64,000 nt of DNA, taken from assembly GCA_963727315.1 (NCBI GenBank), contig CAVSFE010000002.1:50289-114288 (forward strand), written 5' to 3'. The first letter of the stretch is position 1. The number at the start of each line of letters is the position of its first letter. Of the stretch, positions 6,330-30,626 are shown one piece after another. Below the pieces are notes generated by a model. The model worked only from the letters and a program-made list of their open reading frames with translations, did not search any database and was not told where the DNA came from. This stretch comes from an uncultured Chloroflexia bacterium (GTDB lineage: Bacteria; Chloroflexota; Dehalococcoidia; Dehalococcoidales; RBG-16-60-22). A program made the position numbers and the translations under genes.

Positions 6330-6385
6330 TTCTAACCGTATGTTAACCTTGATTATACCCATTCCTAACGAGAAATACCTAGAAT
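6330..6385 (+). promoter_or_regulatory. Four 11-bp-period repeats plus -10 box upstream of the ACP operon
   Basis: TTCTAAC 6330, TGTTAAC 6341, ATTATAC 6352, TCCTAAC 6363, then 10 bp, then TAGAAT 6380-6385. Confidence 0.7.
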
Positions 6386-6481
6386 ACGATTGGGCGATAG
6401 TAAAATAATATCTTAATATTGACGCCGCCATTAGCGTTATCATGTGATATTATCAATAACAAGTAATCACTTAAAGAGAAC

Positions 6482-6739
6482 ATGGACACGAGAAGCCTGA
6501 TTAAGACTTTCGTCATTAATAATTTTCTAAAGGGAGATAAATCAAACAGTCTCCGTGACGATAGTCTCTTTATCGAGGAAGAAATTATCGACTCCGTGGG
6601 AGTTTTGGAGCTTGTAGCTTTCATTGAAGAAACATTTGATTTCAGAGTAGAGGATGAAGAATTGGTCCCGGAGAACCTTGATTCAATTGACAGATTGGTG
6701 ACTTATGTGGAGTCAAAATTGGCCGCTCTTGGGTCGTAA
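6482..6739 (+). CDS. Acyl/aminoacyl carrier protein
   Basis: Acidic 85 aa with IIDSVGVLELVAFIEETF phosphopantetheine site and ELVPENLDSI. Confidence 0.9.
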   Translation: MDTRSLIKTFVINNFLKGDKSNSLRDDSLFIEEEIIDSVGVLELVAFIEETFDFRVEDEELVPENLDSIDRLVTYVESKLAALGS

Positions 6740-6768
6740 TATTTTATTAGCTGTGCGATTCTTTTAAT

Positions 6769-8325
6769 ATGTTGCTTAATGAATTTTTAGAAAAAAGCGC
6801 CGATCTGTACCCTCATAAGGTAGCATTGGTCTGTCGTAACCAGAAACTCACATACGTTGAGATTAACAACGCGGCCAATTCTCTGAGTAACGCTTTGAAA
6901 GCTGAAGGTTTTCTGGGCCAAGACAGGGCCGTCGTATATCTTGACAATTCCTTAGAATCGGTTGTTTCTCTCTTCGGGATACTGAAATCTGGTGGTGTCT
7001 TCGTGATAGTTGATCCGCAGGTCAAGACAAAAAAACTGGAATACTTGTTGGAAAACTGCAAAGCTCGGGTGCTTATAACCGATACCGAACATTTTAGAAA
7101 CGTATCTGAAGTTGCATCAGGTTTACGCAATCTTAAAACTATTATCCTCACTGACTATGAAAAAGAGCCTACGATAAACGAACTGATTTTCGGGCCAAAG
7201 TTATTATCTTACCAGACGTTATTGGAGGAATTTCCTGCCACCCACACCATGCCGTCCTGTATCGATATTGATTTAGCAAGCCTGATATACACCTCCGGTT
7301 CCAGCGGCAATCCTAAAGGAGTGATGCTAACCCATCTGAACATGGTTTCAGCTGCCACTTCTATTATTCAATACCTGGAAAATACCAGTGATGATATTAT
7401 TCTCGATGCTCTGCCGCTGGCATTTGATTACGGCCTATACCAGGTACTTATGGCATTCAAGTTTGGCGGCACGGTAATTTTGGAAAAAGCTTTCGTCTAT
7501 CCGCAACAAATTCTTAATACTATAGTCAGCGAAAAGGTGACCGGTTGGCCGATTGTTCCGACAATTGCCGCAATTCTCGTAAAACTCAAGAACCTTGACA
7601 AACACGATTTTTCCAACCTGAGGTACATTACCAGCACCGGTCAGGCTCTACCGCCAGCACATAGCGCCTATCTGAGGAAGGCATTCCCTAGAGTTAGAAT
7701 ATTCTCCATGTATGGCTTGACTGAATGTAAGAGGGTTTCCTATTTGCCCCCAGGCGAAATGGAAAAAAGACCGGACTCCGTCGGGAAAGCTATACCCAAT
7801 ACGGAGGCTTATATTGTTGATGAAAATGGCGAAGACATAACGGAAGCAGGAAAACCTGGTGAGCTCGTCGTGAGGGGGGCCAATATCATGAAGGGCTATT
7901 GGGACCTCCCCGAAGAGACAGCGAAGGCCCTGCGCCCGGGACCCTATCCCGACGAGAAAGTCCTTTATACCGGCGACCTTTTTTATCAGGATAAAGAGGG
8001 TTATCTCTATTTCCTTGGTCGTAAAGACGATATCATCAAGACGGCTGGATACATGGTAAGCCCTAAAGAGGTGGAGAATGTTTTGTGCCAAAGGGAAGAT
8101 GTAGTTGAGTCCGCCGTGATCGGGATAGAGGATGAATTATTGGGGAAGGCAATAAAAGCCTACGTACATCTGGTTGATACATCTCAGGCCACCGAAGACG
8201 ACATCATTAAGTTCTGTTCAGAACATCTGGAAAACTATGCCGTGCCTAAAATCGTGGATTTTTGCCAGGCTCTGCCTAAGACAATTAATGGAAAAATCAT
8301 CAAGCGAGAATTGCCATTAAAATGA
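6769..8325 (+). CDS. AMP-dependent acyl/aminoacyl ligase (ANL superfamily)
   Basis: YTSGSSGNPKG, MYGLTE, YTGD, GRKDDIIK, LPKTINGKI motifs. Confidence 0.92.
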   Translation: MLLNEFLEKSADLYPHKVALVCRNQKLTYVEINNAANSLSNALKAEGFLGQDRAVVYLDNSLESVVSLFGILKSGGVFVIVDPQVKTKKLEYLLENCKARVLITDTEHFRNVSEVASGLRNLKTIILTDYEKEPTINELIFGPKLLSYQTLLEEFPATHTMPSCIDIDLASLIYTSGSSGNPKGVMLTHLNMVSAATSIIQYLENTSDDIILDALPLAFDYGLYQVLMAFKFGGTVILEKAFVYPQQILNTIVSEKVTGWPIVPTIAAILVKLKNLDKHDFSNLRYITSTGQALPPAHSAYLRKAFPRVRIFSMYGLTECKRVSYLPPGEMEKRPDSVGKAIPNTEAYIVDENGEDITEAGKPGELVVRGANIMKGYWDLPEETAKALRPGPYPDEKVLYTGDLFYQDKEGYLYFLGRKDDIIKTAGYMVSPKEVENVLCQREDVVESAVIGIEDELLGKAIKAYVHLVDTSQATEDDIIKFCSEHLENYAVPKIVDFCQALPKTINGKIIKRELPLK

Positions 8326-8339
8326 TGTAAGAAAGAAAA

Positions 8340-9314
8340 ATGGCGTTTCACAAAGATATCCTAAGGATTGATGTCGTTGCCGAAACAGACCGCATATGCA
8401 GCTTTATCCGGCAACAGGCTAGTGCTATGAAGCGCGTCGGAGCTGTAGTAGGTATCAGTGGCGGCGTTGACTCTGCGGTGGCGGTCGCACTTTGCGTTAA
8501 AGCGCTTGGCGGGAAGAACGTGCTGGGGCTGATCCTTCCAGAGAAAGAATCAAGCCCAGTGTCGGCAGAATACGCCTCGAGGTATGCTAAAAAATTGGGC
8601 ATAAATACTTTAATCATTAACATCACTACCACTCTTGATGGGTTAGGGACCTATCAAAACAGGGATGGGTTTATCCGTAGAGTCTTTCCTGAATATACCG
8701 GCCGTTATAAATCAAAAATCACTTTGCCCGCTAATTTGCTTTCGCGGGATGCTTTGAATGTTTTTATGCTGAGAATTGAAGACGACAAAGGTAATATCAG
8801 GTCCGCCCGCCTCGATAGCGGTAATACGCGCGGTATCGTCGCCGCCATGAATACTAAGCAGAGGACTAGGATGATACACCTTTACTTCCAGGCTGAGATG
8901 AATAATTATCTGGTCTGCGGTACCACCAACCGGTCGGAAAACGTCCAAGGATACTTTGTGAAGTACGGGGATGGCGGTGTGGATGTAGAGCCGCTAGTTC
9001 ACCTGTATAAAATGCAGGTTTACCAGCTTGCTCGTTATTTGGGAGTAATTATGGAGATTATTGATAGAGTGCCGACCCCAGATACTTATAGTTTAATGCA
9101 ATCTGATGAAGAGTTCTATTTCCGCATGCCTTATGAAAAACTTGACCTCCTGCTATATGCCTGGGAAAATAATATCCCTCTCGAAGAGGTATGCCAAGTT
9201 ATGAATCTAACGGACGAGCAGGTCAAGCGGGTTTTTAGAGATTTTAATTCCAAGGCTAACGCCACAAGGCATCTGCATACAATGCCACCGACGCTTAACC
9301 TGGTGACACCATAG
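8340..9314 (+). CDS. NH3-dependent NAD+ synthetase-like (NadE-family) protein
   Basis: GISGGVDS PP-loop, KQRTRM, GTTNRSE, GYFVKYGDG; embedded in ACP/ligase cassette so function may differ from NAD synthesis. Confidence 0.8.
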   Translation: MAFHKDILRIDVVAETDRICSFIRQQASAMKRVGAVVGISGGVDSAVAVALCVKALGGKNVLGLILPEKESSPVSAEYASRYAKKLGINTLIINITTTLDGLGTYQNRDGFIRRVFPEYTGRYKSKITLPANLLSRDALNVFMLRIEDDKGNIRSARLDSGNTRGIVAAMNTKQRTRMIHLYFQAEMNNYLVCGTTNRSENVQGYFVKYGDGGVDVEPLVHLYKMQVYQLARYLGVIMEIIDRVPTPDTYSLMQSDEEFYFRMPYEKLDLLLYAWENNIPLEEVCQVMNLTDEQVKRVFRDFNSKANATRHLHTMPPTLNLVTP

Positions 9315-9363
9315 AATAATCGCGATAATAAGTTGACCATAATATGAAACGAGGAGAGGCAGA

Positions 9364-10407
9364 TTGACACTTGATAAATTTGCGACAGCCTCGAAAATAT
9401 GTACCAGGTGCGCCCTACCCGCAACATACCCTGGCATTCGATTTAACGAAGAGGGCGTGTGTAATCAATGCCTGGACTTCAAGAAAGACGGGACTGATCG
9501 GGACAAACAGGCAGAATATCGGAAAAAGTTCGAGACGTTAATCAAAGAACTCAAGGGGAGTGGTACCTATGATGCACTTATGTGTTACAGTGGCGGCAAG
9601 GACAGCACCCACACGTTAAGTATCCTCAAAGAAAAATATGATTTGAATGTCCTGGCAGTATCTGTTGACAATGGGTTTTTATCAAATCAGGCATTCAAGA
9701 ACATTCAAACGGTCGTAGAAAAATTAGAGATAGACCATATCTTCTTCAAGCCGCGTTTTGACATGCTGGCGAAGATATTCTCCTATTGCTCCAAAGCCGA
9801 TATATACCCACCCAGGGCTTTAGAAAGGGCAAGCAGTATCTGTATCTCCTGTATGGCGATAGTGAAATATAGTACTTTACGTATCGCTCTGGAAAAGAAT
9901 ATCGCTTTTATTGTTTACGGCTGGTCTCCCGGCCAGGCGCCTATCACGTCATCTATCATTAAAAATAATCCAGGTATGGTTAAGATAATGCAGAAGTCGG
10001 TGTACGACCCCCTCTATCGAATCGTTGGCCCTGAGATAAAACCGTACTTTCTAGAGGATAAGCATTTTGAAGAAATGTACCGTTTCCCTTATTATATTCA
10101 CCCGCTGGCATTTCTGGGATACGACGAACCAGCCGTCTATCAGAACATCGCTCGCCTTGGATGGAAACCGCCTCGCGACACCGATGCGAATTCTACCAAT
10201 TGTCTTCTCAATTCCTTCGCTAACGCCTTACATAAAAAACGCCTGGGCTTTCATCCTTATGCCTTCGAACTGTCGAATTTGGTTCGCGAGGGGTATCTAG
10301 ACCGTGATACCGCTATAAACAGGCTTAATCAGCAGGAGAATCCCAAAAACGTGGACAAGGTCAGACAAAAACTAGCATTGACGATAGACTCCACCAAAAT
10401 ATATTAA
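9364..10407 (+). CDS. PP-loop ATPase, N-acetyl sugar amidotransferase-like
   Basis: CTRC...CNQC N-terminus, YSGGKDS PP-loop, CISC, STNC; TTG start with GAGGAG RBS. Confidence 0.75.
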   Translation: MTLDKFATASKICTRCALPATYPGIRFNEEGVCNQCLDFKKDGTDRDKQAEYRKKFETLIKELKGSGTYDALMCYSGGKDSTHTLSILKEKYDLNVLAVSVDNGFLSNQAFKNIQTVVEKLEIDHIFFKPRFDMLAKIFSYCSKADIYPPRALERASSICISCMAIVKYSTLRIALEKNIAFIVYGWSPGQAPITSSIIKNNPGMVKIMQKSVYDPLYRIVGPEIKPYFLEDKHFEEMYRFPYYIHPLAFLGYDEPAVYQNIARLGWKPPRDTDANSTNCLLNSFANALHKKRLGFHPYAFELSNLVREGYLDRDTAINRLNQQENPKNVDKVRQKLALTIDSTKIY

Positions 10408-10520
10408 TACATTACTATCGCCGCTGCCTTAAAGGTCGATAGTCTTGAAGTGTAATTAGAATAAAGACAAGGATGTAGCAGACATTATCTATAATATCCT
10501 CGGATAACTAAAGGAGAAAA

Positions 10521-11171
10521 ATGTTCTTTTTTACATGGATATTCACTTTCATACTCAAGGCTTCCAGGAAAGCTTCAAAGGTGGTCGTCCTGGCCGGGTA
10601 CGACCATAATACCATCTACAAATATTTCCGAAAACAGGGTGCGAAGATTGGAGAAGGCTGCGTTATCAGTACCAAGTCTCTCGGAAGCGAGCCATATTTG
10701 GTAAACCTTGGAAATCGCGTATGGATATCCGGAGATGTTGTCTTTCATACTCATGATGGCGGCGCGTGGGTTCTCAGGGATAACCGGCCAAGCCTTGATG
10801 TCTTTGGCCCCATTATCATCGAGGATAACTGCCTTATCGGGGTAGGTGCTCAGCTACTCCCCAACATACGCATCGGTAGGAATTCAATAGTTGGGCCCGG
10901 GTCAGTCGTTATCTCGGATATTCCTCCCTACAGTATTGTCATGGGGGTGCCTGCCAGACCTATCAGTTCGTTTGCTAAATATAAAGAAAAATGCCTTGCC
11001 CGGTGGGAGGTACAGAAACCCCCTGATTTGGATACAGAAAAGTTAGGCTGGGGCACATCAAAAAATGCTAAGAAAAAACTAAGAAAGCATCTCACTGAAC
11101 TATTTTTCAATCAAGCTAAAGTAGAAAAGGGGAATTCTGATAAGGAAATCCTACAGAACGGGAAGTCTTAA
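10521..11171 (+). CDS. Hexapeptide-repeat (LbH) sugar O-acyltransferase
   Basis: GAKIGEGC, THDGG, IIIEDNCLIG, GVPARPI. Confidence 0.88.
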   Translation: MFFFTWIFTFILKASRKASKVVVLAGYDHNTIYKYFRKQGAKIGEGCVISTKSLGSEPYLVNLGNRVWISGDVVFHTHDGGAWVLRDNRPSLDVFGPIIIEDNCLIGVGAQLLPNIRIGRNSIVGPGSVVISDIPPYSIVMGVPARPISSFAKYKEKCLARWEVQKPPDLDTEKLGWGTSKNAKKKLRKHLTELFFNQAKVEKGNSDKEILQNGKS

Positions 11172-11219
11172 AAATAACCTCGTATTTTTAATTAACCGTT
11201 CCATAAAAATTACAGTAGA

Positions 11220-12251
11220 ATGATTAATTATAGAATAAAATACCAAATTGTAATGACACTAATTACAATAGCCGATTGTATTAGGTTTTTTGATATCTAT
11301 GCCTTCTACAGAAGAAAAATTACTAAATCACAAGTGGCTATTATAACTTATCATCGTACAGGTCCCAAGAATGATAATTGGTCATTAGAACCAACTACGA
11401 CATATTTGTTTAAACAGCAAATGGAATATTTTTTGAAACATTATGAAATAATTTCATTAGCTGAATTAGCACGGCATTTACGTGAAGGCAAGAGCCTCCC
11501 CCAAAGGGCGGTGATAATCACTTTTGACGATGGTTATATAGATACTTACCTGTATGCATATCCATTTTTGAAGGAACATCATATTCCTGCAACTATTTTT
11601 CTTACCACCGGCCCTATAAATAATAACACTCTGTTCTGGTGGGATAAGGTTGGATATATCATACAACATGTGAAAATTGGAGAATATAATCTAAATGAAT
11701 TAGGGAACTTTTCATTATATTCTGATAATGATAGATCAAGAGTTCAAGCAGAAATAATTGAAGCGTTAAAATTAATAAACGAAGACAGAAAATGTTACTT
11801 AATTGACAAGTTATTTGATATTTCGGGCGTAGATATACCGTCTAACTTAACCAAAGGGCACATATTGTCATGGGATCAGGTAAAAGACATGAGTAATAAT
11901 GGCATCAGCTTCGGAGCTCACACCGTAAATCACCCTATCTTAACGAATATGCCGCTAAAGCAAGCAGAATGGGAAATTATCCAATCAAAAAGAGATATTG
12001 AAAATGTCCTGAATAAGGATGTGAATGCATTTTCATATCCGAATGGAGATTTTAATCTTAATTTAATTTCGATAGTTAAGGAAAGCGGCTTTGACCACGC
12101 CGTTTCTTTTGCTAAAGGAAAGTTCATTACTTTGAATGATAATATTTATGCATTAGTTAGATTTCCTCCACATGATAGTTTTAGTTTGTTTAAATTTGAC
12201 CAATGCGGTTTGTTAGGAGATTTACGTAAATTAGTAAATACAGGCAGGTAA
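11220..12251 (+). CDS. Polysaccharide deacetylase
   Basis: ITYHR, ITFDDGY, FGAHTVNHPIL, FSYPNG. Confidence 0.9.
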   Translation: MINYRIKYQIVMTLITIADCIRFFDIYAFYRRKITKSQVAIITYHRTGPKNDNWSLEPTTTYLFKQQMEYFLKHYEIISLAELARHLREGKSLPQRAVIITFDDGYIDTYLYAYPFLKEHHIPATIFLTTGPINNNTLFWWDKVGYIIQHVKIGEYNLNELGNFSLYSDNDRSRVQAEIIEALKLINEDRKCYLIDKLFDISGVDIPSNLTKGHILSWDQVKDMSNNGISFGAHTVNHPILTNMPLKQAEWEIIQSKRDIENVLNKDVNAFSYPNGDFNLNLISIVKESGFDHAVSFAKGKFITLNDNIYALVRFPPHDSFSLFKFDQCGLLGDLRKLVNTGR

Positions 12252-12253
12252 AC

Positions 12254-13333
12254 ATGGAAAAAACCTGGAAAATCAGAGCTTATAGAGATGGAGACGAGGA
12301 AGGAATACTGGAATTATGGAAATCAGTATATCCTGAAATGCACTTAGAAAGAAATAAATGGCTCAGTTGGTGGAACTGGCAGTATAATGAAAACCCGGCT
12401 GGGAAAGGCTGGATATGGCTGGCGGACGACGGGAATAAAATAGTGGGACAATATGCACTTATACCGGTACTGATGAAAGTTGGTACGGAATTGGTAGCTG
12501 GCTTTCAATCACTAGATACTATGACTCATCCTGAATATAGACATCAAGGTATTTTTTACACCTTGGCCCGTAAAACGTATGAAGAAGTCGCCAAGGATAA
12601 TGTACATATAGGATATGGGTTCTCAAATGATAATTCGTTTCCTGCATTCATAAAAAAACTAAATTGGCTGGAAATGCCGAATATGAAAGTCATGGTAAAA
12701 GCGTTTGATTGGCGGAATGCTATTAAGCTTAGAACAAAGAATAAGTTTTTACAGGTAGTCTTGGGAATTGGCGCTGACCTTATCTTTAATAAGACATTAT
12801 CATTAATGCAAAGAGGCCCCACCCAGCCTGACTTGAGCGTCAGTCAGGTTACTTATTTTGATGAGCGATTTGATGAATTATGGAATAATATTTGTAGACA
12901 GGCACCAATAATGAGAGTAAGGAATAAGGATTATCTTAATTGGAGATATCATGCGCCTGATAAAAATTTTATTATTTTTGCTGCGGAAAAAGACCTTAAA
13001 ATATATGGATACCTTGTAATGCAAAATACAATTAGACAGAATGCCAAAACGAGCATTATTTTTGATCTAGTCGCTCAATCAGAAGAAGTAATGCATTGTT
13101 TGGTATCTAGAGCATTAGAGGAATGCCAACAAAAAAATATGGACGTAATTATTTATTCATCGCTAACGAACAAGACTTATCGTAAGATATTAATAAAGAA
13201 CGGATTCATTTCCCTTCCGTTTATTAAGGGCGGACATTTCATAATTTACTCTGATTCATCATCTATTTCCAAAGACTTTCTCAGCAATTCTAAAAATTGG
13301 TTTATTAGCACGGGAGATTCAGACATTAACTAG
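12254..13333 (+). CDS. GNAT-family N-acyltransferase
   Basis: DTMTHPEYRHQGIF acyl-CoA motif; YLNWRY; two-domain length. Confidence 0.8.
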   Translation: MEKTWKIRAYRDGDEEGILELWKSVYPEMHLERNKWLSWWNWQYNENPAGKGWIWLADDGNKIVGQYALIPVLMKVGTELVAGFQSLDTMTHPEYRHQGIFYTLARKTYEEVAKDNVHIGYGFSNDNSFPAFIKKLNWLEMPNMKVMVKAFDWRNAIKLRTKNKFLQVVLGIGADLIFNKTLSLMQRGPTQPDLSVSQVTYFDERFDELWNNICRQAPIMRVRNKDYLNWRYHAPDKNFIIFAAEKDLKIYGYLVMQNTIRQNAKTSIIFDLVAQSEEVMHCLVSRALEECQQKNMDVIIYSSLTNKTYRKILIKNGFISLPFIKGGHFIIYSDSSSISKDFLSNSKNWFISTGDSDIN

Positions 13334-13425
13334 AAGCGTATTTGAAAAATTTCTTCATCTGACGATGGCGCTGATACAAGCACTGGCTAACCGTTGAATG
13401 CAAAGGCAGCACGTTATGAAGAATC

Positions 13426-14685
13426 GTGCTAAAGCAGTATATGATAAAAAGAAGAACTAACATGAATATTTGCCAGGTTTGTCTTTCTGATGGTTGGGCT
13501 GGTGCTGAGACCGTAGTTTATGAACTAGCTCGGCATCTTCGGGATAGAGGCGAGAGTGTCAGTATCGTTCTTAACCATGAGATCGTGAAATTTTACAGTG
13601 ACCTCAAAAATGTAAAGCTTTTTGATATTGGCTGTATATATCCCCCGGACTCCTGCATACCACATATAATCAGAAACAAACAAAAACGGGACTTTTTAAC
13701 CCAGTTCTTTCGCTTAGGTTACCGTTATCTTGACGAAATACTTCGTTACCGACACTACAAGAAGATAAAAAATGCGCTAATACAATTCATGCTTGAAAAC
13801 CACATTAGTATTGTCCATTCACACCTCGAAAATGCCGCCATTCTAGTTTCTACTCTTAATGGTCTTAAGATTCCAACAATAGTTACTGTCCACGGTGAGA
13901 CTGAGCTTAGAGGTGCCGCCCCTATCCACCCGCTGGTTAGGCCCCATATAAAATGGAAGATGAGAAAGTTTAGGCAGGCTCTGGTAAAAGCGAATCAGGT
14001 CATCGGGGTAAGTAATTTTATCATTGACGCTTGGGATAAACAGGCAGTAACGTTTAAAAACACACCAGTCGTGATTTACAATGGCATTAATGTCGCCGTA
14101 ATGAAAGATTATTCCTCTTTAAAAGTAGGTTTGAAAGGGAAATTCAACCTCGTTTTTCCAGGGGGGGCGAAGTGGACTAAAGGTGGTGATTTACTAATTG
14201 CCGCATTACCTAAAATAGCGCCGGAAATACCTGATTTCCACCTCTATATTGCCGGCAATGTACCGCAGCGCGATCTGCTTAAAAAGATGGTGCACGATTT
14301 AGGCTTGGAATCAAAGGTTACGTTTTCAGGCTTTCTTTTAAAAGAGGAATACCAGAAACTGCTTAATTCCGTTGATATATTTATTTTACCTTCGAGGACG
14401 GAGGGTTTTCCGGTATCGATTCTAGAGGCAATGGCTCTGGGTAAGCCGATAATCACAACTCGCCGGGGTGGTATTAATGAGATGGTCTGCGACGGCAGAA
14501 ATGGGATTCTGGTTGAGCCGAATCCCGAGCAGATTGCCGGTGCCATCTTATACCTCCATCGCAACGCGAATATCCGAAAGGAAATAAGCCAAAATAACCT
14601 AAAGGACGTAGCTAGATTTGATTGGAATCTTGCTATAGACAAGTATGTCGATATCTACCAGCAAGTACTTAAGAGAGATCAATAG
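13426..14685 (+). CDS. Glycosyltransferase family 4
   Basis: GAETVV N-terminal motif; PSRTEGFPVSILEAMALGKPII; true start may be 13441 or 13462. Confidence 0.92.
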   Translation: MLKQYMIKRRTNMNICQVCLSDGWAGAETVVYELARHLRDRGESVSIVLNHEIVKFYSDLKNVKLFDIGCIYPPDSCIPHIIRNKQKRDFLTQFFRLGYRYLDEILRYRHYKKIKNALIQFMLENHISIVHSHLENAAILVSTLNGLKIPTIVTVHGETELRGAAPIHPLVRPHIKWKMRKFRQALVKANQVIGVSNFIIDAWDKQAVTFKNTPVVIYNGINVAVMKDYSSLKVGLKGKFNLVFPGGAKWTKGGDLLIAALPKIAPEIPDFHLYIAGNVPQRDLLKKMVHDLGLESKVTFSGFLLKEEYQKLLNSVDIFILPSRTEGFPVSILEAMALGKPIITTRRGGINEMVCDGRNGILVEPNPEQIAGAILYLHRNANIRKEISQNNLKDVARFDWNLAIDKYVDIYQQVLKRDQ

Positions 14686-17309: not shown

Positions 17310-17392
17310 ATTCTAGGGTAATCGTAGGCCAGAGTCAATAATCTAGACACCTCCCCAACCGTTTTCAAACGGAACTTTAACTACATTCTAAC
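17310..17392 (-). promoter_or_regulatory. Sigma70-like promoter of wzc-like gene with upstream four-repeat array
   Basis: Minus strand TTGACT (17338-17333)-17 bp-TAGAAT (17315-17310); plus-strand repeats CCCCAAC 17353, TTCAAAC 17364, CTTTAAC 17375, TTCTAAC 17386. Confidence 0.65.
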
Positions 17393-17505: not shown

Positions 17506-17561
17506 TTCTAACCGTTTTCTGACTCGCCTCCGACATTGTTCTAACTAGATTGAATTATGAT
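17506..17561 (+). promoter_or_regulatory. Four 11-bp-period repeats plus -10 box upstream of REC/HD-GYP-like gene
   Basis: TTCTAAC 17506, TTCTGAC 17517, CTCCGAC 17528, TTCTAAC 17539, 10 bp, TATGAT 17556-17561; 39/40 identical to reverse complement of 30425-30464. Confidence 0.8.
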
Positions 17562-22860: not shown

Positions 22861-22944
22861 ATTACTTCTCCCTTGGTTTAACGGTTTTTATGGTTGTAAC
22901 GTTGGCACCGATTGGTTTATTAAAATGGCGCCCGTTATCTCGGG

Positions 22945-23328
22945 CTAACGCGCTTTGTTAATCAAGCTTAAGGCTTTTATCGTCTTCAGATAGTCATCTT
23001 TAATATCAAAATACACAGTGTCTTCGGCATGCTGGGTATCTCGGGGAAAACAATTAATAACTGATGCCTTTCTACCGGCCAGAACTTTAGCCTTGGCTTC
23101 TTCTACCCAGACCTTCCTCGTGGCTACCCAGAAATAATCCCTGTCTTCTTTATGGACCCAGGCGAAGACACCCATTTCACCAAGAATATCGGATTTAAAT
23201 TTGTTTAAATTATAGGTACGTTCATTGGCCTTAGAGTAGTGACAGCCGATGTCACCAGCCAGTTTTTTAACGAAGTCCTCGTCTTGCTCGTCGAATTCCA
23301 TTGTCCGTCTTGGTTTTTTTACTAGCAT
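22945..23328 (-). CDS. Hypothetical protein
   Basis: Open frame with plausible RBS before ATG 23328 (MLVKKPRR); no recognised motif. Confidence 0.55.
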   Translation of the reverse strand: MLVKKPRRTMEFDEQDEDFVKKLAGDIGCHYSKANERTYNLNKFKSDILGEMGVFAWVHKEDRDYFWVATRKVWVEEAKAKVLAGRKASVINCFPRDTQHAEDTVYFDIKDDYLKTIKALSLINKAR

Positions 23329-23421
23329 GAAGGACCCCCTTCCCGGTAAATCCCTTCTGGCGGAAATGTGCACGGACTGGATATCCGCCACCCCGTGCAC
23401 ATTTCACTAACGAGAGCAAAT

Positions 23422-23751
23422 TTATCGGCTTACTCTTACTTTACGGTAGCAATCGCTACAATAGACCGGCCTACCTTGACGGGGCTCGAAGGGTACTGAA
23501 GTTGACTTACCGCAATCGGCGCATACTGCCGGGTACATTTGGCGCCCGGGAGTGTAGCTGTTGTAGCTGCTATTTCCGTAGCTGTTACCACCGTTTCCAT
23601 AACGCTCTGCTTTCCTCGCCTGGCGGCATTCGGGGCAGCGCTTGGGCTGATTGGTATAGCCTCTTGACTGGAATTGCTCCTGTTCCGCGACACTGAAGAT
23701 AAAAGTCTTATTGCAATCGGAACATTCTAGGGTTTTTTCCTGAAAGCTCAT
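23422..23751 (-). CDS. Zinc-ribbon / CxxC-x17-CxxC domain protein
   Basis: CSDC...PKRCPECR and CADC...VPFEP...VYCSDCY; GAGGAGG RBS. Confidence 0.9.
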   Translation of the reverse strand: MSFQEKTLECSDCNKTFIFSVAEQEQFQSRGYTNQPKRCPECRQARKAERYGNGGNSYGNSSYNSYTPGRQMYPAVCADCGKSTSVPFEPRQGRPVYCSDCYRKVRVSR

Positions 23752-23864
23752 TGGATGGCCTCCTCTCTTAATAATTTAGTTAGAGCTTGGGTCATCCAAT
23801 ACTTGATGTGAATCTAAGGGGATTTCAAGAGTTTTGTATTAACCTAAACTGGAACTATGCTTTA

Positions 23865-23893
23865 ATGATACAATAAAGTTATTCTATTGTCAA
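23865..23893 (-). promoter_or_regulatory. Sigma70-like promoter of zinc-ribbon gene
   Basis: Minus strand TTGACA (23893-23888)-17 bp-TATCAT (23870-23865). Confidence 0.65.
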
Positions 23894-23924
23894 ATGAAGC
23901 CTCCCTAGTTAGGGAGGCTTCATT
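23893..23924. terminator. Strong hairpin, probable terminator of kinase-PqqD-peptide operon
   Basis: Perfect 15-bp inverted repeat AATGAAGCCTCCCTA-gt-TAGGGAGGCTTCATT. Confidence 0.7.
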
Positions 23925-24031
23925 GTTTCTATAAAAAATTCTCTCTTTTCTTCTATATTAGAAGAGAGCGAACATATTTTACTTTATCATTATTGGTATC
24001 CCTAATGCTTTACCCGTGCCCCTATCACAGC

Positions 24032-24127
24032 TTACTCTCTGAAGCCGCTGCCGTGGTTGCCACAGAGCACTTCGGCTTTAAGGATTTCGGACTTTACCGT
24101 AGGTTTCACATATGGTTCTTTTGCCAT
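24032..24127 (-). CDS. Putative RRE-dependent precursor peptide, 31 aa (MAKEPYVKPTVKSEILKAEVLCGNHGSGFRE)
   Basis: GGGGAGGT RBS 6 nt before ATG 24127; YxxP leader motif; directly downstream of PqqD gene; below ORF-track cutoff. Confidence 0.75.
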   Translation of the reverse strand: MAKEPYVKPTVKSEILKAEVLCGNHGSGFRE

Positions 24128-24184
24128 AACATTACCTCCCCGGACACATAATTATTGGATTTTGCCCGGTTCTTCGACCTTTCC

Positions 24185-24454
24185 TTAAATATATTTTATA
24201 ATGCCCGCCTTTGTCAAGTTCTCGATTGTCTCCCTCGTGTCCGCGCGGGCTTCCTCAAGAGAAACATCGAAGCGGTCAAAGAGACTCGCCGCTATCTCAT
24301 CGATGCTGCGTTTGCCATCGCACATTTCCCAGATAAGGGTAGCTGTTTTATTCAATATGTGCGTCGATAGCCCGTCGTCCTTGATGACCACGACTTCATC
24401 GCCGATGCGGCGCCAGATAATGTCTTCAGCCTTTATCATTTTATCCGCCATCAT
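24185..24454 (-). CDS. PqqD-family RiPP recognition element (RRE)
   Basis: WRRIGDEVVVI...LNKTATLIWEMCDGKRSIDEIAASLFDRFDVS...L...GII; likely start ATG 24454. Confidence 0.92.
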   Translation of the reverse strand: MMADKMIKAEDIIWRRIGDEVVVIKDDGLSTHILNKTATLIWEMCDGKRSIDEIAASLFDRFDVSLEEARADTRETIENLTKAGIIKYI

Positions 24455-24474
24455 CTCTACTCCCTGCCAGCCTT

Positions 24475-25449
24475 TCACTTTTCCAACTCTCCCACGACCT
24501 GCCAGAGTGACTTCTCGTCCAGATTAAACTCGAGTTCATAGACCGGGACGGCTTTGGTCACCTCGTCGCTGAATTCAGACATAATCAAAAGCACCGCCCG
24601 TTTATCTTTCTGGCCGATACAGGCCGGCGTTATAATCTGTCGCATGAATCTTAAATATGTCTCCGTCCTGTCCAGGTTACGCACCAGGGTCTCACTGCCT
24701 TTTTTAAGCAGGAAGATGCAGCGTAAAGGTGCCTTCAAGTACCGTCGCGAGGAGACTCTCCCGAGAAAAGGGGCGCTCTCCACGTTAAGGCCGTTTCCGT
24801 TCTGTTTGGGGCGAGAGACCAGCAACATTTCGTCGTTGATTACCTCTCCGTCGCGTTTCCGGCAAAGGCGGGCGATGGTCGTTTTACCGGCTTCACTGGG
24901 ACCGGCAAATAACAGCGCCTGTCCCGAGCGCAGGATGCCGCAGGCGTGGACTATCATGGCCGGGGGATGACCGTCGTATTTCATCTTACACGCCGAGTAA
25001 TAGGCCAGCGCTAACAGCTGATTAATGCGATTGCCCTCCATGTCCGGGTTGGCGAGGCCTCTTTCGCCGGTAATTTTAATGTAACCGCGCGTCAGGTCGT
25101 ACTTACCGGAGACCACCTGGCTCGTCGACCTGAACAAATTTTCCTCATGAACGTAGTTGTTATCAGGCAGGGCTGCATATAAATCGTCCGGGCTCAAGCG
25201 GTCGGTCCCTTCCAGCTCTATGGTAATATCGGCCGGTTCTTTTGTAAGGAAACCATGGCACAACCGTTTTAGCTTCATCAGCTCCTTATAGTCTTCGGCA
25301 TCCCGGCACTTGAAGGCGCAGCCAACGCTGCCCATCCGCAGGCTAAAAGCATTTTTAAAGGGCAGCGCCCCTTCTCGTGCTTGTTCCTGCGGACTGACCG
25401 TTGCTGTCAGCGTCCGCTCGCCAGCGTTATTAACTGACATATATTTCAC
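24475..25449 (-). CDS. HPr-kinase-related P-loop protein
   Basis: VHACGI...LFAGPSEAGKTT...INDEMLLV...PFLG...PVYELEF pattern typical of HprK-related kinases. Confidence 0.8.
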   Translation of the reverse strand: MKYMSVNNAGERTLTATVSPQEQAREGALPFKNAFSLRMGSVGCAFKCRDAEDYKELMKLKRLCHGFLTKEPADITIELEGTDRLSPDDLYAALPDNNYVHEENLFRSTSQVVSGKYDLTRGYIKITGERGLANPDMEGNRINQLLALAYYSACKMKYDGHPPAMIVHACGILRSGQALLFAGPSEAGKTTIARLCRKRDGEVINDEMLLVSRPKQNGNGLNVESAPFLGRVSSRRYLKAPLRCIFLLKKGSETLVRNLDRTETYLRFMRQIITPACIGQKDKRAVLLIMSEFSDEVTKAVPVYELEFNLDEKSLWQVVGELEK

Positions 25450-25469
25450 TCGCCAAGTATCCTGTTTTT

Positions 25470-25526
25470 ATCATAATATGGCTTTTGTTGGTTATTGGTA
25501 AACGAAGCGTTAGAAAGTGGTAGGAA
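25470..25526 (-). promoter_or_regulatory. Degenerate four-repeat array plus -10 upstream of kinase-PqqD-peptide operon
   Basis: Plus-strand GTTGGTT 25487, GTAAACG 25498, GTTAGAA 25509, GTAGGAA 25520 (11-bp period); minus-strand TATGAT 25475-25470, 11 bp from the last repeat. Confidence 0.55.
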
Positions 25527-25643: not shown

Positions 25644-25913
25644 ATGTTACTTCGTGATGAGATAATGCCGATGCTGACCATAAAGGATGTCGCCCGTCTC
25701 TTGCACATCCACGTCAATACCGCCCGGCGCTGGAGCGACCAGGGCATATTGAAATCTTATCGTATTACCCGGCGTGGCGACCGCCGGTTCCGGCAGGAAG
25801 ATATCGCCCGTTTTCTGGCGGAATACAACGATTTCAATACCAAGAAAGAACCCGACCGGGAGACCACCCAGGGTTCCGCCAACGACAAGGGTAAGATAGT
25901 TATCGGGCACTAA
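25644..25913 (+). CDS. Small excisionase/MerR-like helix-turn-helix DNA-binding protein
   Basis: MLTIKDVARLLHIHVNTARRWSDQGILKSYRI...GDRRFRQEDI; GAGGAG RBS. Confidence 0.88.
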   Translation: MLLRDEIMPMLTIKDVARLLHIHVNTARRWSDQGILKSYRITRRGDRRFRQEDIARFLAEYNDFNTKKEPDRETTQGSANDKGKIVIGH

Positions 25914-25964: not shown

Positions 25965-26771
25965 CTAATACTGTATCAGACTGCCTTCCGCCTTGGCGCG
26001 CCTCAGAGCTTTTCTAAAAACGAGGAAGGCCAGAGGCGTTAACACCAGAGCGAATCCCAGCAGGATCAGGATATCGTTGCGAACTTCGAATATCGAGTAT
26101 CCCTTAAGCATGGCCAGTCTCATGGCATCCAGGGAGTAGGTCATCGGCAGGACATGGGATAACGGCGTGAGCCAGCCAGGGAGCACTGATATAGGATAGT
26201 ACACGCCAGCCAGGAGCGTTGATACCCCTCCGAATATCCAGGCAATCGGGTCGCCTTTTTTTACCACCAGCACAATGGCCGCCGAAAGGATGCCGATGCC
26301 GCTGAAGCTGGCCACGGACAGTATTAGGACGATGAAGGCCGTCAAGAAATTCGCCTGACTTATATTGAATCCGAAGACCAGTCCCCCGAAAAGAAAATAT
26401 GCCACCACGTTCAACGTGGTCAGCAAATAGTCCCACAACGACGATGAGAATAGTATAGCGCTCAACCGGGTCGGGCTGAGGAGCATAATCTCCAGCGTGC
26501 CGGTCATCTGACCGTCGCGGATGCTCGAGGCGAAGCTGGAGAGGGACAAACCCAGGTAACCGTTAAAAGCCAGGCCGATGAGGACAAAGGAGAAATAATC
26601 GCCCCCGTATTGCTCAAGCTGGGGCACCAGGGCGTTGCCGAAAAGCCGCGAGAGGAAATAGAAGGAAGCTACCCCGAAGAAGATGCCGAGTATCTCGAGC
26701 AAAAAGGCGATGCGATAGCTCAGCGCGATCGAAAAATCACGTTTTAAGAAAGCCGTCGCGGTAGACATCAC
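25965..26771 (-). CDS. ABC-2 type exporter permease
   Basis: Six hydrophobic segments; GTLEIMLLSP; GVYYPISVLPGWL...LPMTY. Confidence 0.9.
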   Translation of the reverse strand: MMSTATAFLKRDFSIALSYRIAFLLEILGIFFGVASFYFLSRLFGNALVPQLEQYGGDYFSFVLIGLAFNGYLGLSLSSFASSIRDGQMTGTLEIMLLSPTRLSAILFSSSLWDYLLTTLNVVAYFLFGGLVFGFNISQANFLTAFIVLILSVASFSGIGILSAAIVLVVKKGDPIAWIFGGVSTLLAGVYYPISVLPGWLTPLSHVLPMTYSLDAMRLAMLKGYSIFEVRNDILILLGFALVLTPLAFLVFRKALRRAKAEGSLIQY

Positions 26772-27778
26772 TCCTTTTCCTTCTGTCCGCTTTTCAGGGC
26801 ATTAGTGAATATTTCTTCGAGCGGCAGCTCTTTCAATTCACAGTTATATACCTCGGCGCCGTTGTTGATTATTATCTGCAGCAGGCGGGGCAGCACCTGC
26901 TCACGGTTGGTTATCTTCAGCTCCAGCGTCGGTCCCTCTTTGCCGTTCCTGGTCAGGGTGCAGCCGAGCACGCCTTCGACCTGTTCGAGCTGGGCGAGGA
27001 CGGCCTCGGGGAAATTCCTCACCTGCAGGCGGCATTCTTCGTGGGTCTGGAAGACGGAGCGCAGTTCTTTCACCGAACCGAGGGCAATTACCCGCCCGCG
27101 GTCCATGATTGCCAGTCGGTCACAGAGCTGTTCCGCCTCGGTGAGGTTGTGGGTGGCCAGCACTATCGTCTTTTTTTCGACCACCACCTTTTCCTTGAGG
27201 AAGGAACGGACCGACTGCGCGCTGACAGGGTCGAGGCTTCGGGTGGGTTCATCCACGAAAAGGACCTTCGGTTCACTGAGCAGGCCCCGGATAATCGCCA
27301 TTTTTTGCCGCATCCCGGTGGAGTAGTTCTGGAACCTGATGTCGGCTTCTTTGTCCAGCCCCACCACGTTTAACAGCTCATTAATATGCTGGCGACTCTG
27401 CTGCCGCGGAAGGTGATAAAGGGACGCGTAAAATTGCAGGTTCTCACGGCCGGTGAGGCGCCAGTAAAAACTCCTCTCCTCGGCGTTGATTAACCCGACT
27501 AGGTTTTTTACGGCCTGTTCTTTTTTCAGGATGTCGTTACCGTAGACGCTGGCTGTGCCTGAAGTGGGCAACACGAGACAGCATAGCAGTTTGATTAAAG
27601 TGGTCTTACCGGCGCCGTTAGGCCCCAGCAGGCCGAAAAATTCGCCCGGCTGTATATCCAGGGTCACTTTTTCTACAGCCGTGACCCATTGTTTCTTTCT
27701 GAAGGGTAACAGTTCGCGGTAGCCAGAGCTACGGGCGAATCTTTTCGTCAATTCGTTGGTACTGATGGCCGTGGTCAC
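26768..27778 (-). CDS. ABC exporter ATP-binding subunit
   Basis: GPNGAGKTT, YSTGMRQK, VDEPT; likely GTG start 27778 overlapping peptidase stop (GTGA). Confidence 0.92.
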   Translation of the reverse strand: MTTAISTNELTKRFARSSGYRELLPFRKKQWVTAVEKVTLDIQPGEFFGLLGPNGAGKTTLIKLLCCLVLPTSGTASVYGNDILKKEQAVKNLVGLINAEERSFYWRLTGRENLQFYASLYHLPRQQSRQHINELLNVVGLDKEADIRFQNYSTGMRQKMAIIRGLLSEPKVLFVDEPTRSLDPVSAQSVRSFLKEKVVVEKKTIVLATHNLTEAEQLCDRLAIMDRGRVIALGSVKELRSVFQTHEECRLQVRNFPEAVLAQLEQVEGVLGCTLTRNGKEGPTLELKITNREQVLPRLLQIIINNGAEVYNCELKELPLEEIFTNALKSGQKEKE

Positions 27779-28281
27779 TTTATCCGCCTCCCCCCACAAA
27801 GCCACCCGAGTCTATCGATATATCTTACTACCCTTATCTGGTTGGGATAACGGCCCCGAGCGAACCAGGCGGTCAGCCGGCCGTAAACGCGTCCTGACCA
27901 TCCATTGAGCTTTAGCTTTCTCTCGTTTTCCTCGATTAAAATGACCCGGCCCATGACCTGCGTGTCGTTTACCGGCGGGTCGATATTTTTCATAGCGTCG
28001 CCTTTGGTTATCAACACTTTACCGTCCTTCCGGCTGTTTATTTTTACCAGTCGGTGGGCCGTCAAAGAGCCGTCCGGCCGCCGATAGAAAATAATGTCCC
28101 CTATGCCCACCGAACGGCCGTTCCGCGCCTCGACAATTATTACATCCCCGTTTTTTATGAAGGGGTACATGCTGTTGCCGTGGGCCTGAAAGCGCAGCCG
28201 GGCGCCGCGGTCGAGCACTTCTTGGCTCAACTCTAGAAAATCCGCCTTGTCGGTATTCAATTCTTTGTCCGGCATTTTCAC
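27775..28281 (-). CDS. S24/S26-family (signal peptidase I-like) peptidase without N-terminal membrane anchor
   Basis: GNSMYPFIKNGD catalytic Ser, GDIIFY, AHRLV, ITKGD, VMGRV. Confidence 0.85.
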   Translation of the reverse strand: MKMPDKELNTDKADFLELSQEVLDRGARLRFQAHGNSMYPFIKNGDVIIVEARNGRSVGIGDIIFYRRPDGSLTAHRLVKINSRKDGKVLITKGDAMKNIDPPVNDTQVMGRVILIEENERKLKLNGWSGRVYGRLTAWFARGRYPNQIRVVRYIDRLGWLCGGRRIK

Positions 28282-28365: not shown

Positions 28366-28421
28366 AGTTTACCCGCTGCACGTTAGTTATCAGTAAACAA
28401 ATGGTGAGAATTTGGTTATAA
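28366..28421 (-). promoter_or_regulatory. Four-repeat array plus -10 upstream of peptidase-ABC operon
   Basis: Plus-strand GTTAGTT 28382, GTAAACA 28393, GTGAGAA 28404, GTTATAA 28415; minus-strand TAAACT 28371-28366, 10 bp from the last repeat. Confidence 0.6.
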
Positions 28422-28909: not shown

Positions 28910-30268
28910 TTAAGTCAATAATACGTCGGGCGTTTTTTGTCCCGTAATCCGGTGGCCGATGCCGTCGTATAAAAATCCCGCCCGTATCATGTCTTCGGGA
29001 TTGTACAGATTGCGACTGTCCACCATGACCGGCCTTGTCATTAGAGAGGCTATCTTTCGTAAATTGAGTTCTTTAAACTCGTCCCATTCCGTGACCAGGA
29101 TCAGGGCGTCGCTGCCGCTGGCGACTTTGTAGGCGTCCTCGCAATACGTTACCCCGGGCATTATTCTGGCCGCCTCCTCCATGGCCACGGGGTCGTAGGC
29201 TTTAATCCGGCAGCCGTTTTCTTCGAGCAGCCTTACCACTTCGACGGAACGCGCCTCCAGCATATCGTTGGAGCCCGGTTTGAAGGCAAGCCCCAGTATG
29301 CCGATGGTCTTGTCCTGGAGCGAGCCCACCATCGAGCGTAGTTTCTCGACTACCAAACGCGGCTGGCGCTGGTTGACCCTCTGGACGGCGTGCATTAGCG
29401 GGAAAGGCACTCGATAGCTCTCCGCCATATATATGAGTCCCCGCACATCCTTGGGCAGGGAGCTGCCCCCCCACCCCAGTCCAGCGTCCATATCACCGTT
29501 ACCGTGGCGCGGCTCCAGACTGGCAATTTCGGCCACTTTCTTGACATCCGCGCCGCACTCGTCGCAAAGCAGCGCTATTTCGTTGATGAAACTGATCCTG
29601 GTGGCCTGCAACGTATTGGAAACGTACTTCGACATCTCCGCCGTTTTGTTGTCGCAGGTGATTAAGGGCGAGTTTAGACTGGCGTAGAGCCTCACCACCG
29701 CATCGATATCATTCTGGTCGGCACCCCCTACCACGACCCGGCTGGGGTTCATAAAATCGCTTACCGCCATGCCTTCCCTCAGAAATTCGGGATTGGAGAT
29801 TACCGCAAAATGATGCCCGTTCCGACTGTTCTGGGCGATTATCTCGGCGACCATGTCGGCCGTGCCCACCGGCACGGTGCTTTTCAGGACAACGATAAGC
29901 GGCCCGCTGGCGGTCTCGGCGATGCTCCGTGTCGCGTTGCGGACCCATTTTAAATCGGGTTTCCCGTTACGCCCTGAGGGCGTGCCCACGGCGATAAAGG
30001 CAAAGTCGGCGCCCCGCAACCCCCCGTTATAGCTGCCGGCGACATTGATATTGCCCTTGGCCCGGTTGCGTTTCCAGAGCTGGGGCAGGTCCGGCTCGTT
30101 GACAGGCAGGCGCCCGCTCTCCAGGGCGGATAGCTTTTTCGGGTCGATTTCTATCATCGTGACCTTGTTGCCGAGTTCCGCCAGACAGGCGGCGGTAACG
30201 AGGCACGCGTAGCCCGCCCCGACGATACCGATATGCTTCGTATCTTTGGGTGACATCATGGTCATCAT
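28910..30268 (-). CDS. UDP-glucose/GDP-mannose dehydrogenase-family protein with catalytic Cys replaced by Ser
   Basis: GAGYAC, FIAVGTP, KSTVPVGT, SNPEFLREG, GWGGSSLPKD (canonical GGSC), GLAFKP. Confidence 0.88.
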   Translation of the reverse strand: MMTMMSPKDTKHIGIVGAGYACLVTAACLAELGNKVTMIEIDPKKLSALESGRLPVNEPDLPQLWKRNRAKGNINVAGSYNGGLRGADFAFIAVGTPSGRNGKPDLKWVRNATRSIAETASGPLIVVLKSTVPVGTADMVAEIIAQNSRNGHHFAVISNPEFLREGMAVSDFMNPSRVVVGGADQNDIDAVVRLYASLNSPLITCDNKTAEMSKYVSNTLQATRISFINEIALLCDECGADVKKVAEIASLEPRHGNGDMDAGLGWGGSSLPKDVRGLIYMAESYRVPFPLMHAVQRVNQRQPRLVVEKLRSMVGSLQDKTIGILGLAFKPGSNDMLEARSVEVVRLLEENGCRIKAYDPVAMEEAARIMPGVTYCEDAYKVASGSDALILVTEWDEFKELNLRKIASLMTRPVMVDSRNLYNPEDMIRAGFLYDGIGHRITGQKTPDVLLT

Positions 30269-30272
30269 ATAT

Positions 30273-30328
30273 AATTTATGCTTCCCAGGTTAGTACCCAG
30301 TTAGACGAGCGTAAGGATTAGGTTAGAA
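30273..30328 (-). promoter_or_regulatory. Proximal four-repeat array plus -10 for ugd-like gene (possibly leaderless)
   Basis: Plus-strand GTTAGTA 30289, GTTAGAC 30300, GTAAGGA 30311, GTTAGAA 30322; minus-strand TAAATT 30278-30273, 10 bp from the last repeat. Confidence 0.65.
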
Positions 30329-30408
30329 TATGTCAAGTTCATCATCTTGCTGGTGGTTATAACAGCCTGAATTTCGTGACATTTGTCATCGATGTAATAT
30401 ACACATTT

Positions 30409-30464
30409 ATCATATTACGAATCTGTTAGAACAATGTCGGAGGTGAGTCAGAAAACGGTTAGAA
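30409..30464 (-). promoter_or_regulatory. Distal four-repeat array plus -10 for ugd-like gene
   Basis: Plus-strand GTTAGAA 30425, GTCGGAG 30436, GTCAGAA 30447, GTTAGAA 30458; minus-strand TATGAT 30414-30409, 10 bp from the last repeat. Confidence 0.8.
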
Positions 30465-30542
30465 TATCCGGATCATTGTCCGCCTGGGCCGGTGTGCCTT
30501 CGACTAACTCTGGCCAGCCCGCTAAAACTCCGAAATCGGCGG

Positions 30543-30626
30543 GTTAGAATAAAGTTAAAATTTCGTTAAAAAATGGTTAGAAACTGTCCGGCACTATTGA
30601 CTCTTGCTCCATGATTGTTCTATAAT
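30543..30626 (+). promoter_or_regulatory. Four-repeat array and sigma70-like promoter of the response regulator
   Basis: GTTAGAA 30543, GTTAAAA 30554, GTTAAAA 30565, GTTAGAA 30576; TTGACT 30597-18 bp-TATAAT 30621. Confidence 0.75.

Follow-up and report, generated by a model that had tools for sequence, protein, structure and literature searches.

The DNA analyzed here is a 64,000-nt stretch (the window, i.e., this whole stretch) from the genome of an uncultured member of the Dehalococcoidales (G000; 1.95 Mb in 4 contigs, 55.7% G+C). It carries part of a polysaccharide and surface-protein island of ~55 kb whose transcription units begin with arrays of short direct repeats, and these arrays, together with the gene of an OmpR/PhoB-family response regulator (30804-31520), are the subject of this work. 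Relatives of G000 are designated by G and a number, loci by L and a number, and contigs by C and a number. The initial annotation of this DNA had described eight arrays, each consisting of four TTCTAAC-like 7-mers with an 11-bp period, and all eight were found where it had put them. The arrays fall between long open reading frames (ORFs) and head operons. Each is built of four 7-bp units and 4-bp A/T-leaning spacers, and the unit consensus is TTCTAAC, often TTCTAACC; in the array at 17506-17545, for example, the units are TTCTAACCGTT, TTCTGACTCGC, CTCCGACATTG and TTCTAAC. The promoter layout that had been read from the letters also held: six arrays precede a -10 hexamer with a gap of 10 bp (11 bp for the array at 25487) and with no resemblance to a -35 where one would be expected (hereafter type A), and the two reverse arrays, at 17353 and 30543, lie 14 bp from TTGACT hexamers of the opposite strand, each with a complete promoter (type B). 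The arrays and the genes behind them, with families assigned by Pfam and NCBIfam scans and scores from the position weight matrix described below, are as follows:

6330-6369, + strand: type A array, 34.5 bits; -10 TAGAAT at 6380-6385; heads an operon for acyl carrier protein (ACP), AMP-ligase, amidotransferase-like protein, hexapeptide transferase, deacetylase, GNAT and GT4 proteins (6482-14685).
17353-17392, + strand: type B (inverted) array, 30.5 bits; 14 bp upstream of TTGACT (17333-17338, - strand), N17, TAGAAT (17310-17315, - strand); precedes the Wzz/P-loop chain-length protein gene (14781-17279, - strand; Pfam Wzz and AAA_31).
17506-17545, + strand: type A array of the best-conserved type (TTCTAACCGTTTTCTGACT..CTCCGACATTGTTCTAAC), 49.9 bits; -10 TATGAT at 17556-17561; precedes a gene for a receiver (REC) plus degenerate HD-GYP-like protein (17614-18981), an epimerase gene and a UDP-sugar dehydrogenase gene.
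25487-25526, - strand: type A array, the weakest, 21.3 bits and 19/28 consensus matches; -10 TATGAT at 25470-25475 (- strand), 11-bp gap; precedes genes for an HprK-like kinase (24475-25449), a PqqD/RRE protein (24185-24478) and a treble-clef zinc-finger protein, and a B12 radical-SAM cassette.
28382-28421, - strand: type A array, 29.3 bits; -10 TAAACT at 28366-28371 (- strand); precedes genes for a SipW/archaeal-type signal peptidase I (27775-28281) and an ABC-2 transporter (25965-27805).
30289-30328, - strand: type A array, 40.1 bits; -10 TAAATT at 30273-30278 (- strand); precedes the UDP-glucose dehydrogenase (ugd) gene (28910-30268; family by Pfam).
30425-30464, - strand: type A array, near-copy of 17506-17545, 50.8 bits; -10 TATGAT at 30409-30414 (- strand); predicted to be the upstream one of two tandem promoters, with transcription passing through the 30289 array into ugd.
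30543-30582, - strand: type B (inverted) array, 49.6 bits; 14 bp upstream of the distal promoter (P1) of the regulator gene, TTGACT (30597-30602), N18, TATAAT (30621-30626).

The unit formed by an array and its TATGAT hexamer is present in three near-identical copies, at 17506-17561, at 30409-30464 and, outside the window, at G000:C3:184317-184372 (L098, 3018-3075), and the latter two also have a leader of ~30 nt in common (TATGATAAAnGTGTATATTnnATCGAT). That all the arrays derive from one duplicated promoter cassette was considered and discarded, since only these three are near-copies, and in the others the units are alike but the spacers are not.

The enrichment of the arrays over chance was analyzed by counting matches to (TTCTAAC-N4)x4 at every position of G000 on both strands. 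With a threshold of at least 21 matches out of the 28 consensus positions, 21 positions were found across the genome at period 11, whereas none was found at periods 8, 9, 10, 12, 13, 14 or 21, a single one at period 22, and none in ten genomes simulated with an order-3 Markov model. The pattern TTCTAAC-N9-AC-N9-AC-N4-TTCTAAC, when up to 2 mismatches were allowed, gave 11 matches in G000 and 0 in the reversed genome. A non-circular version of the analysis used a 42-column matrix trained on 51 arrays taken solely from the loci of other genomes; applied to G000, this matrix returned 16 positions of at least 20 bits (15 distinct arrays) as against 0 in the reversed control, and all eight arrays of the window ranked among its top 14, with scores of 21.3-50.8 bits. 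Hence, the enrichment over background that the initial annotation had proposed to look for is present at period 11 and is near-absent in the controls. Four weaker matrix matches (C2:989048, C2:33744, C3:2717 and C2:603046; 15.7-16.9 bits) were left uncounted because they are within the range of the control, which has 2 matches of at least 16 bits, and C2:312173, which fits the pattern but not the matrix, was also omitted. The arrays are clustered, and eleven of them lie between positions 29,471 and 80,870 of C2, i.e., in the first 30.6 kb of the window and the 21 kb before it. The extent given in the initial annotation was thus too short, even if its eight arrays stand: at least 7 more are located outside the window, including three in the 21 kb that precede it.

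In order to describe the promoter geometry, we assembled 65 distinct arrays with at least 21/28 matches, 14 from G000 and 51 from the loci of relatives. Signal was also observed in columns that had no part in the selection: a C directly following each outer unit (unit position 8) in 54 of the 65 arrays, A/T at the last two positions of the spacers (10-11), and a TAnnAT hexamer 10 bp past the array, at positions 51-56 (T in 44, A in 46 and the final T in 41 of the 65). The offset between the array and a TAnnnT hexamer was 10 bp in 37/65 and 11 bp in 9/65, and the remaining offsets from 0 to 33 hold 0 to 9 arrays. Two classes could be distinguished. In type A (46 of the 65 arrays) a -10 hexamer is found at 9-11 bp, and GTCAA is upstream in none. 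In type B (13 of the 65, of which 11 are in loci of relatives) the array is inverted, no -10 hexamer follows it and GTCAA, the reverse of TTGAC, is located 13-16 bp upstream; a TAnnnT at offset 9-11 was observed in 0/13 of them, so that no class II promoter follows these arrays. Six arrays belong to neither class. In type A, the -35 window sits within the array itself, on unit 3 and its spacer, with a consensus of about ACCTTA, unlike TTGACA, and the column counts of the 65 arrays revealed no TG extension in these promoters. At ugd, the sequence ATG ATG is found 4-7 nt past the -10 hexamer TAAATT (30263-30278, - strand), which leaves no space for a ribosome-binding site, and the same TAAATT-N5-ATG arrangement is present in L003 and L005 of relatives. 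The ugd mRNA is probably leaderless, as predicted from this spacing, and the assignment of the -10 hexamer is supported because the distance to the ATG fits a leaderless mRNA.

The initial annotation had proposed the arrays as binding sites of the regulator encoded at 30804, which would be autoregulated. This regulator and the kinase encoded next to it are:

30804-31520, + strand: OmpR/PhoB-family response regulator, 238 aa; proposed to bind the arrays.
31480-32445, + strand: histidine kinase; Pfam HisKA and HATPase_c only.

The 30804 protein matches Pfam Response_reg (E 3.9e-28; 98.3 bits, cut-off 30.2) and the Trans_reg_C winged helix (E 2.7e-23; 82.3 bits, cut-off 26.2), and its best relatives in the PDB are PhoP, RpaA, KdpE and MtrA (E ~1e-45 to 1e-47). 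Its receiver domain has D10, D11, D53, T80 and K102, which vary little or not at all in the alignment; we take them to be the phosphorylation positions (acidic pair, acceptor Asp, Thr/Ser and Lys). Across 14 orthologues (72-93% identity) hardly any variation was observed in the DNA-recognition region, and two paralogues differ in it. A search of the whole of G000 with the 30804 protein gave 36 matches, a high two-component count for a 1.95-Mb genome. The protein was rejected as a PhoB orthologue, with 171.7 bits against a cut-off of 296.2 for TIGR02154, and it reached no equivalog model of NCBIfam, the best being RpaB with 196.5 versus 330. PhoU is encoded ~627 kb away (G000:C2:708306-708869), with another OmpR-type regulator at C2:700910, and the matrix scan detected no array of at least 14 bits in the PhoU region that would link the arrays to pst/phoU; a Pho system separate from the 30804 regulator exists in G000. 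In the 31480 kinase no sensor or membrane segment was found, the maximum 19-aa hydropathy being 1.42 and located inside the ATPase domain, and translation probably begins at an internal ATG near 31558.

We then compared the distribution of the arrays and of the regulator. Orthologues of the regulator (67-93% identity) are restricted to part of one family, and the relatives that come next do not exceed 48% identity. Among 109 relatives searched, with an orthologue defined by an E value no higher than 1e-90, the array pattern was present in 23/23 relatives with the orthologue (107 matches) and in 14/86 without it (27 matches), counts that are descriptive and not a test statistic because the genomes are related and the pattern was taken from G000. 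The reversed control pattern gave 5 matches in 110 genomes. In the other families of the order (16 genomes) a single match was detected in one genome and the orthologue in none. Within the family, orthologous arrays recur across several genera. Arrays are located upstream of the regulator orthologue, pointing away from it, in 11/11 loci, and the kinase gene follows the regulator gene in all 15 loci long enough to tell. The divergent neighbour of the regulator is the REC plus HD_5 gene in 10 loci (in L076 with only a weak 30% match), ugd in 5 and neither of them in L023, and in relatives a 40-mer of the 17506 type stands divergent from the regulator gene. The 6330 array has an orthologue in G005, in which the spacers have diverged, and the 28382 array has one in L013. 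In G076, which is a single contig, two orthologues of the regulator were observed (92% and 84% identity; C1:279536-280765 and 1675850-1676957), each with arrays 230-480 bp upstream; 14 pattern matches were counted in this genome.

The motif is established, as are its enrichment, geometry and conservation and the fact that it co-occurs with the regulator, and we consider it likely that the arrays are the operators of the 30804-31520 regulator, an assignment with which every computational test that was run agrees; the binding itself, the sign of the regulation, the stoichiometry and the signal we infer from the sequences. In the mechanism that we propose, the soluble kinase encoded just downstream would phosphorylate the 30804 regulator, and the four half-sites of an array would hold two head-to-tail dimers of the regulator on one face of the helix. 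At type A promoters the bound regulator would take the place of the missing -35 element and recruit RNA polymerase, as in class II activation of the PhoB kind. At type B promoters the inverted array would modulate a promoter that is already complete, among them that of the Wzz gene and the distal promoter of the regulator gene, the latter leading to autoregulation, and this effect could be activation or repression. The regulon would be a set of extracellular matrix and envelope genes: the polysaccharide biosynthesis and export island, the SipW-type signal peptidase with its ABC exporter, a cassette resembling those for ribosomally synthesized and post-translationally modified peptides (RiPP-like cassette), two large secreted proteins with Ig repeats or CARDB domains, a lipid kinase, and the REC plus degenerate HD-GYP-like partner.

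This layout has known counterparts. PMC4971064 describes the PhoB site as two 7-bp direct repeats, each with a 4-bp A/T-rich stretch, usually located near the -10 element and replacing the -35, and in these terms the arrays resemble the pho box of E. coli in their 7-bp repeats, 4-bp A/T-rich spacers, 11-bp period and replaced -35. The regulator is also like E. coli PhoB in pairing a REC with a winged-helix domain; unlike in that system, the half-site here is TTCTAAC(C), the predicted targets are polysaccharide and surface-protein genes, and the kinase lacks membrane and PAS parts. At pstS, four repeats are also known, in the form of two tandem pho boxes. For Streptomyces PhoP, direct repeats of 11 nt, at least two and up to six, are described in PMC3479208, and the variable number of tandem 11-nt direct repeats is a likeness of the arrays to the sites of S. 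coelicolor PhoP. Four units are the norm in the arrays studied here, and 5-7 are present at G000:C2:35417-35500 and in L005. In Bacillus subtilis PhoP, four TT(A/T/C)ACA repeats are the core binding region. The arrays differ from the sites of both PhoP proteins in half-site, regulon and lineage (Chloroflexota, Dehalococcoidales), with no link to phosphate genes here. The matrix regulon of B. subtilis comprises the eps operon and tapA-sipW-tasA, which are controlled by the SinR/SlrR repressors. Exopolysaccharide genes and a SipW-type signal peptidase are likewise found here, and a TasA/camelysin-family protein (Peptidase_M73) is encoded elsewhere in G000; unlike in B. subtilis, an OmpR-type activator is proposed, and the TasA-like gene carries no array.

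Several observations weigh against the assignment of the arrays to the 30804 regulator. The relatives do not count as independent samples, and the search pattern had been built from G000; in 14 genomes the pattern is present with no orthologue detected, several of them being incomplete and some carrying different repeat types; the most conserved non-coding piece at the proximal promoter of the regulator gene (see below) has a 10-bp spacing, not 11, and is not explained by the model; the 36 regulator matches in G000 mean that a paralogue could bind; and close orthologues of a small HTH_17 (MerR/excisionase-like) protein are found, within the first set of genomes, in 11 of the 13 that carry the regulator and in no other. 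With respect to the genomes that have no detected orthologue, G013 has a 123-aa fragment of it, G002, G102 and G124 are 61-74% complete, and G114, which is 93% complete, is not accounted for. The HTH_17 protein is encoded at 25644-25913, inside the island and divergent from the 25487 array, and could itself bind the arrays, so that the response regulator would control something else. Its orthologues (63-89% identity) are in G003-G008, G010, G011, G014, G019 and G020, all of which have arrays, no genome free of arrays has one, and paralogues of it adjoin paralogous regulator genes (e.g., G000:C1:44617 beside C1:43393). Since this phyletic pattern is nearly identical to that of the regulator, co-occurrence alone does not decide against the HTH_17 protein. 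Four direct repeats at 11 bp that abut a -10 element are, however, the documented OmpR/PhoB layout, and no evidence of such a layout was found for HTH_17 proteins. Moreover, the HTH_17 matches of G001 and G024, with 5 arrays each, and of G013, with 6 arrays, are all distant (E 1e-12 to 1e-14), although these genomes are 81-86% complete. Arrays are found beside the regulator gene throughout, while the HTH_17 gene of G004, G007, G014 and G020 lies on a different contig. On account of the OmpR/PhoB site layout and of the arrays that abut the regulator gene, we ranked the HTH_17 protein low and regard it as a very improbable binder. As a separate observation, in many genomes of the family the paralogue closest to the regulator (44-46% identity; e.g., G000:C1:43393-44760) repeatedly has a small HTH_17 gene beside it, which suggests a recurrent pairing of regulator and HTH_17 protein.

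A different OmpR-family paralogue might bind or cross-regulate the arrays, a candidate being the regulator encoded at G000:C2:447190-447882. The block GGGAAAAGKTA is common to the promoters of this gene and of the 30804 gene, and the half-site family TTnTAAC overlaps the array types of genomes that lack the orthologue (TTGTAAC x4 and TTCTAACGCAATTCTAAC). We nevertheless find this quite unlikely, given that the next-best paralogues are no more than 48% identical, that the two aligned ones differ in the recognition helix, and that the presence of arrays tracks the 30804 orthologue (23/23 versus 14/86), the gene of which they abut in every orthologous locus examined. Alternatively, the 30804 regulator might bind the arrays mainly as repressor operators and occlude the promoter; the sites extend over the -35 region, and a protein bound at this place can block the polymerase as well, and the type B sites adjoin strong-looking promoters (TTGACT-N17-TAGAAT and TTGACT-N18-TATAAT). 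The fixed gap of 10-11 bp to the -10 element is instead the geometry of activation of the PhoB type, and type A promoters have neither a -35-like hexamer nor a TG extension, for which reason they should be weak without an activator, and this makes a mainly repressive role improbable in our judgement. As regards other arrays of 11-bp period in genomes without the orthologue, their units read TTGTAAC x4 or TTCTAACGCAATTCTAAC..TCTAGCG; those at G016:C28:17679, G021:C107:3203, G103:C88:3484 and G081:C287:2320, and at G015:C19:14782 and G057:C135:26097, have TTCTAACGCAATTCTAACGTT..TCTAGCG..TTCTAAT or TTGTAAC x4, and such variant arrays are probably operators of related regulators.

Under the assignment of the arrays to the 30804 regulator, the set of predicted targets extends beyond what was initially described: the island promoters named then stand, the island spans ~55 kb and genes outside it also carry arrays. 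Upstream of the window, the island encodes a 776-aa CARDB protein, a Wzx-type flippase with two GT4 enzymes and an AsnB-like enzyme, and a GT4 plus Bac_transf priming transferase together with DegT and an epimerase. Within the window, the regulator-kinase pair itself counts among the array-headed units. Outside the island, arrays are found at the gene of a 915-aa secreted Ig-repeat protein, where the array is kept in G001, G002, G004 and G005, and at that of a DAGK/YegS-type lipid kinase, and the promoter copy at C3:184317 precedes only a small hydrophobic ORF of ~37-41 residues. Weaker sites outside the island are an array at a cobalamin adenosyltransferase/FBPase gene pair and two sites of the C2:653305 subtype (17-20 bits).

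The protein encoded at 17614-18981, behind the best-conserved array, had been labelled HD-GYP, a label that has to be withdrawn, since both the HD and the GYP motifs are missing. The protein matches Pfam HD_5 (E 6.7e-22), and it has IKDIAL..RYERYNGTGGTF where the canonical proteins of L080, L083 and L089 have IHDIGK..HHERxDGxGYP, so that KD and RYE..GGTF occupy the aligned motif positions. Its orthologues, aligned in the loci of 10 relatives, are likewise without HD and GYP. It is probably a conserved non-catalytic HD-GYP-like domain, as judged from these alignments, and a role as a cyclic diguanylate (c-di-GMP) phosphodiesterase is not to be assumed because the two motifs are missing. The receiver domain of this protein has N-Y-D where an acidic pair is usual.

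Two further features lie at the regulator gene, between its distal promoter and its start:

30661-30688, + strand: conserved non-coding block AAAATTGGGGGGAAAAGGTAAGAAAAGT, which abuts the proximal promoter P2.
30693-30721, + strand: proximal promoter P2 of the regulator gene, also conserved, TTGACT (30693-30698), N17, TATGCT (30716-30721).

The block was aligned by regular expression in 10 of 17 upstream regions and can be recognized by eye in most of the rest. At 30661-30721 it can also be written AAAATTGGKGGGAAAAGGTAGGAAAAGT, directly upstream of a TTGAC-N17-TAnnCT promoter. A second copy was found at G000:C2:448025 (L129, ~3990-4060, - strand), upstream of another pair with an OmpR-type regulator, and this pair precedes the gene of a TasA/camelysin-like secreted protein. 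The block may be a second operator. With Rfam, the window as a whole was without a match at gathering thresholds, and 30200-30900 had none even when E values up to 1 were accepted; hence the conserved leader and the block are not known RNA families.

We also considered a wider, lineage-specific three-protein switch. It would consist of the sensorless kinase, the OmpR-type regulator and the catalytically dead REC plus HD-GYP-like partner, the latter, instead of the kinase, as the point of signal entry (a nucleotide receptor or phosphate sink). The promoter of this partner has the best-conserved array, and the partner is the ancestral divergent neighbour of the regulator. Binding as a dimer of dimers would occur only on four-unit arrays, their orientation would set the two promoter classes, and the second operator, which another regulator gene has too, would lead to a regulator cascade over the extracellular matrix of wetland Dehalococcoidales. 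We put this extended model forward tentatively and hold it to be doubtful as a whole.

The initial annotation had called the regulon motif novel, which applies to the motif and to the regulon but not to the kind of mechanism, and no new kind of mechanism is revealed here. As a new regulon of a known kind it is well supported by the sequence comparisons; the regulator would work in a PhoB/PhoP-like manner, yet within its family it is a distinct, lineage-specific protein with a predicted matrix/envelope regulon. A literature search, judged by the titles and abstracts that were listed, returned no response-regulator binding site of the TTCTAAC type and nothing on two-component control of exopolysaccharide in Dehalococcoidia. 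The lineage that carries the arrays, uncultured Dehalococcoidales, has no genetics, and its gene control is almost unstudied. What was found here is a complete regulatory unit, i.e., an operator, two promoter layouts and a candidate regulator with its kinase, together with a coherent predicted regulon of at least 15 promoters of polysaccharide, secretion and surface-protein genes. The motif can be used for the annotation of matrix and envelope genes in related metagenome-assembled genomes, and the model is testable with purified protein and synthetic DNA alone.

Two further groups of genes in the window were noted. The RiPP-like cassette at 21339-25449 (- strand), which is under an array promoter, encodes an HprK-related/ScmC-like kinase (a weak match), a PqqD RRE protein, a B12-binding radical-SAM enzyme and a DUF4070 protein; within 21339-25449 no precursor peptide was recognized. 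The treble-clef zinc-finger protein of this cassette has the arrangement CxxC-x17-CxxC. Directly after the kinase gene, and without an array of its own, lies an undecaprenyl-diphosphatase gene (BacA/UppP; 32471-33325, - strand), which fits the polysaccharide theme of the island.

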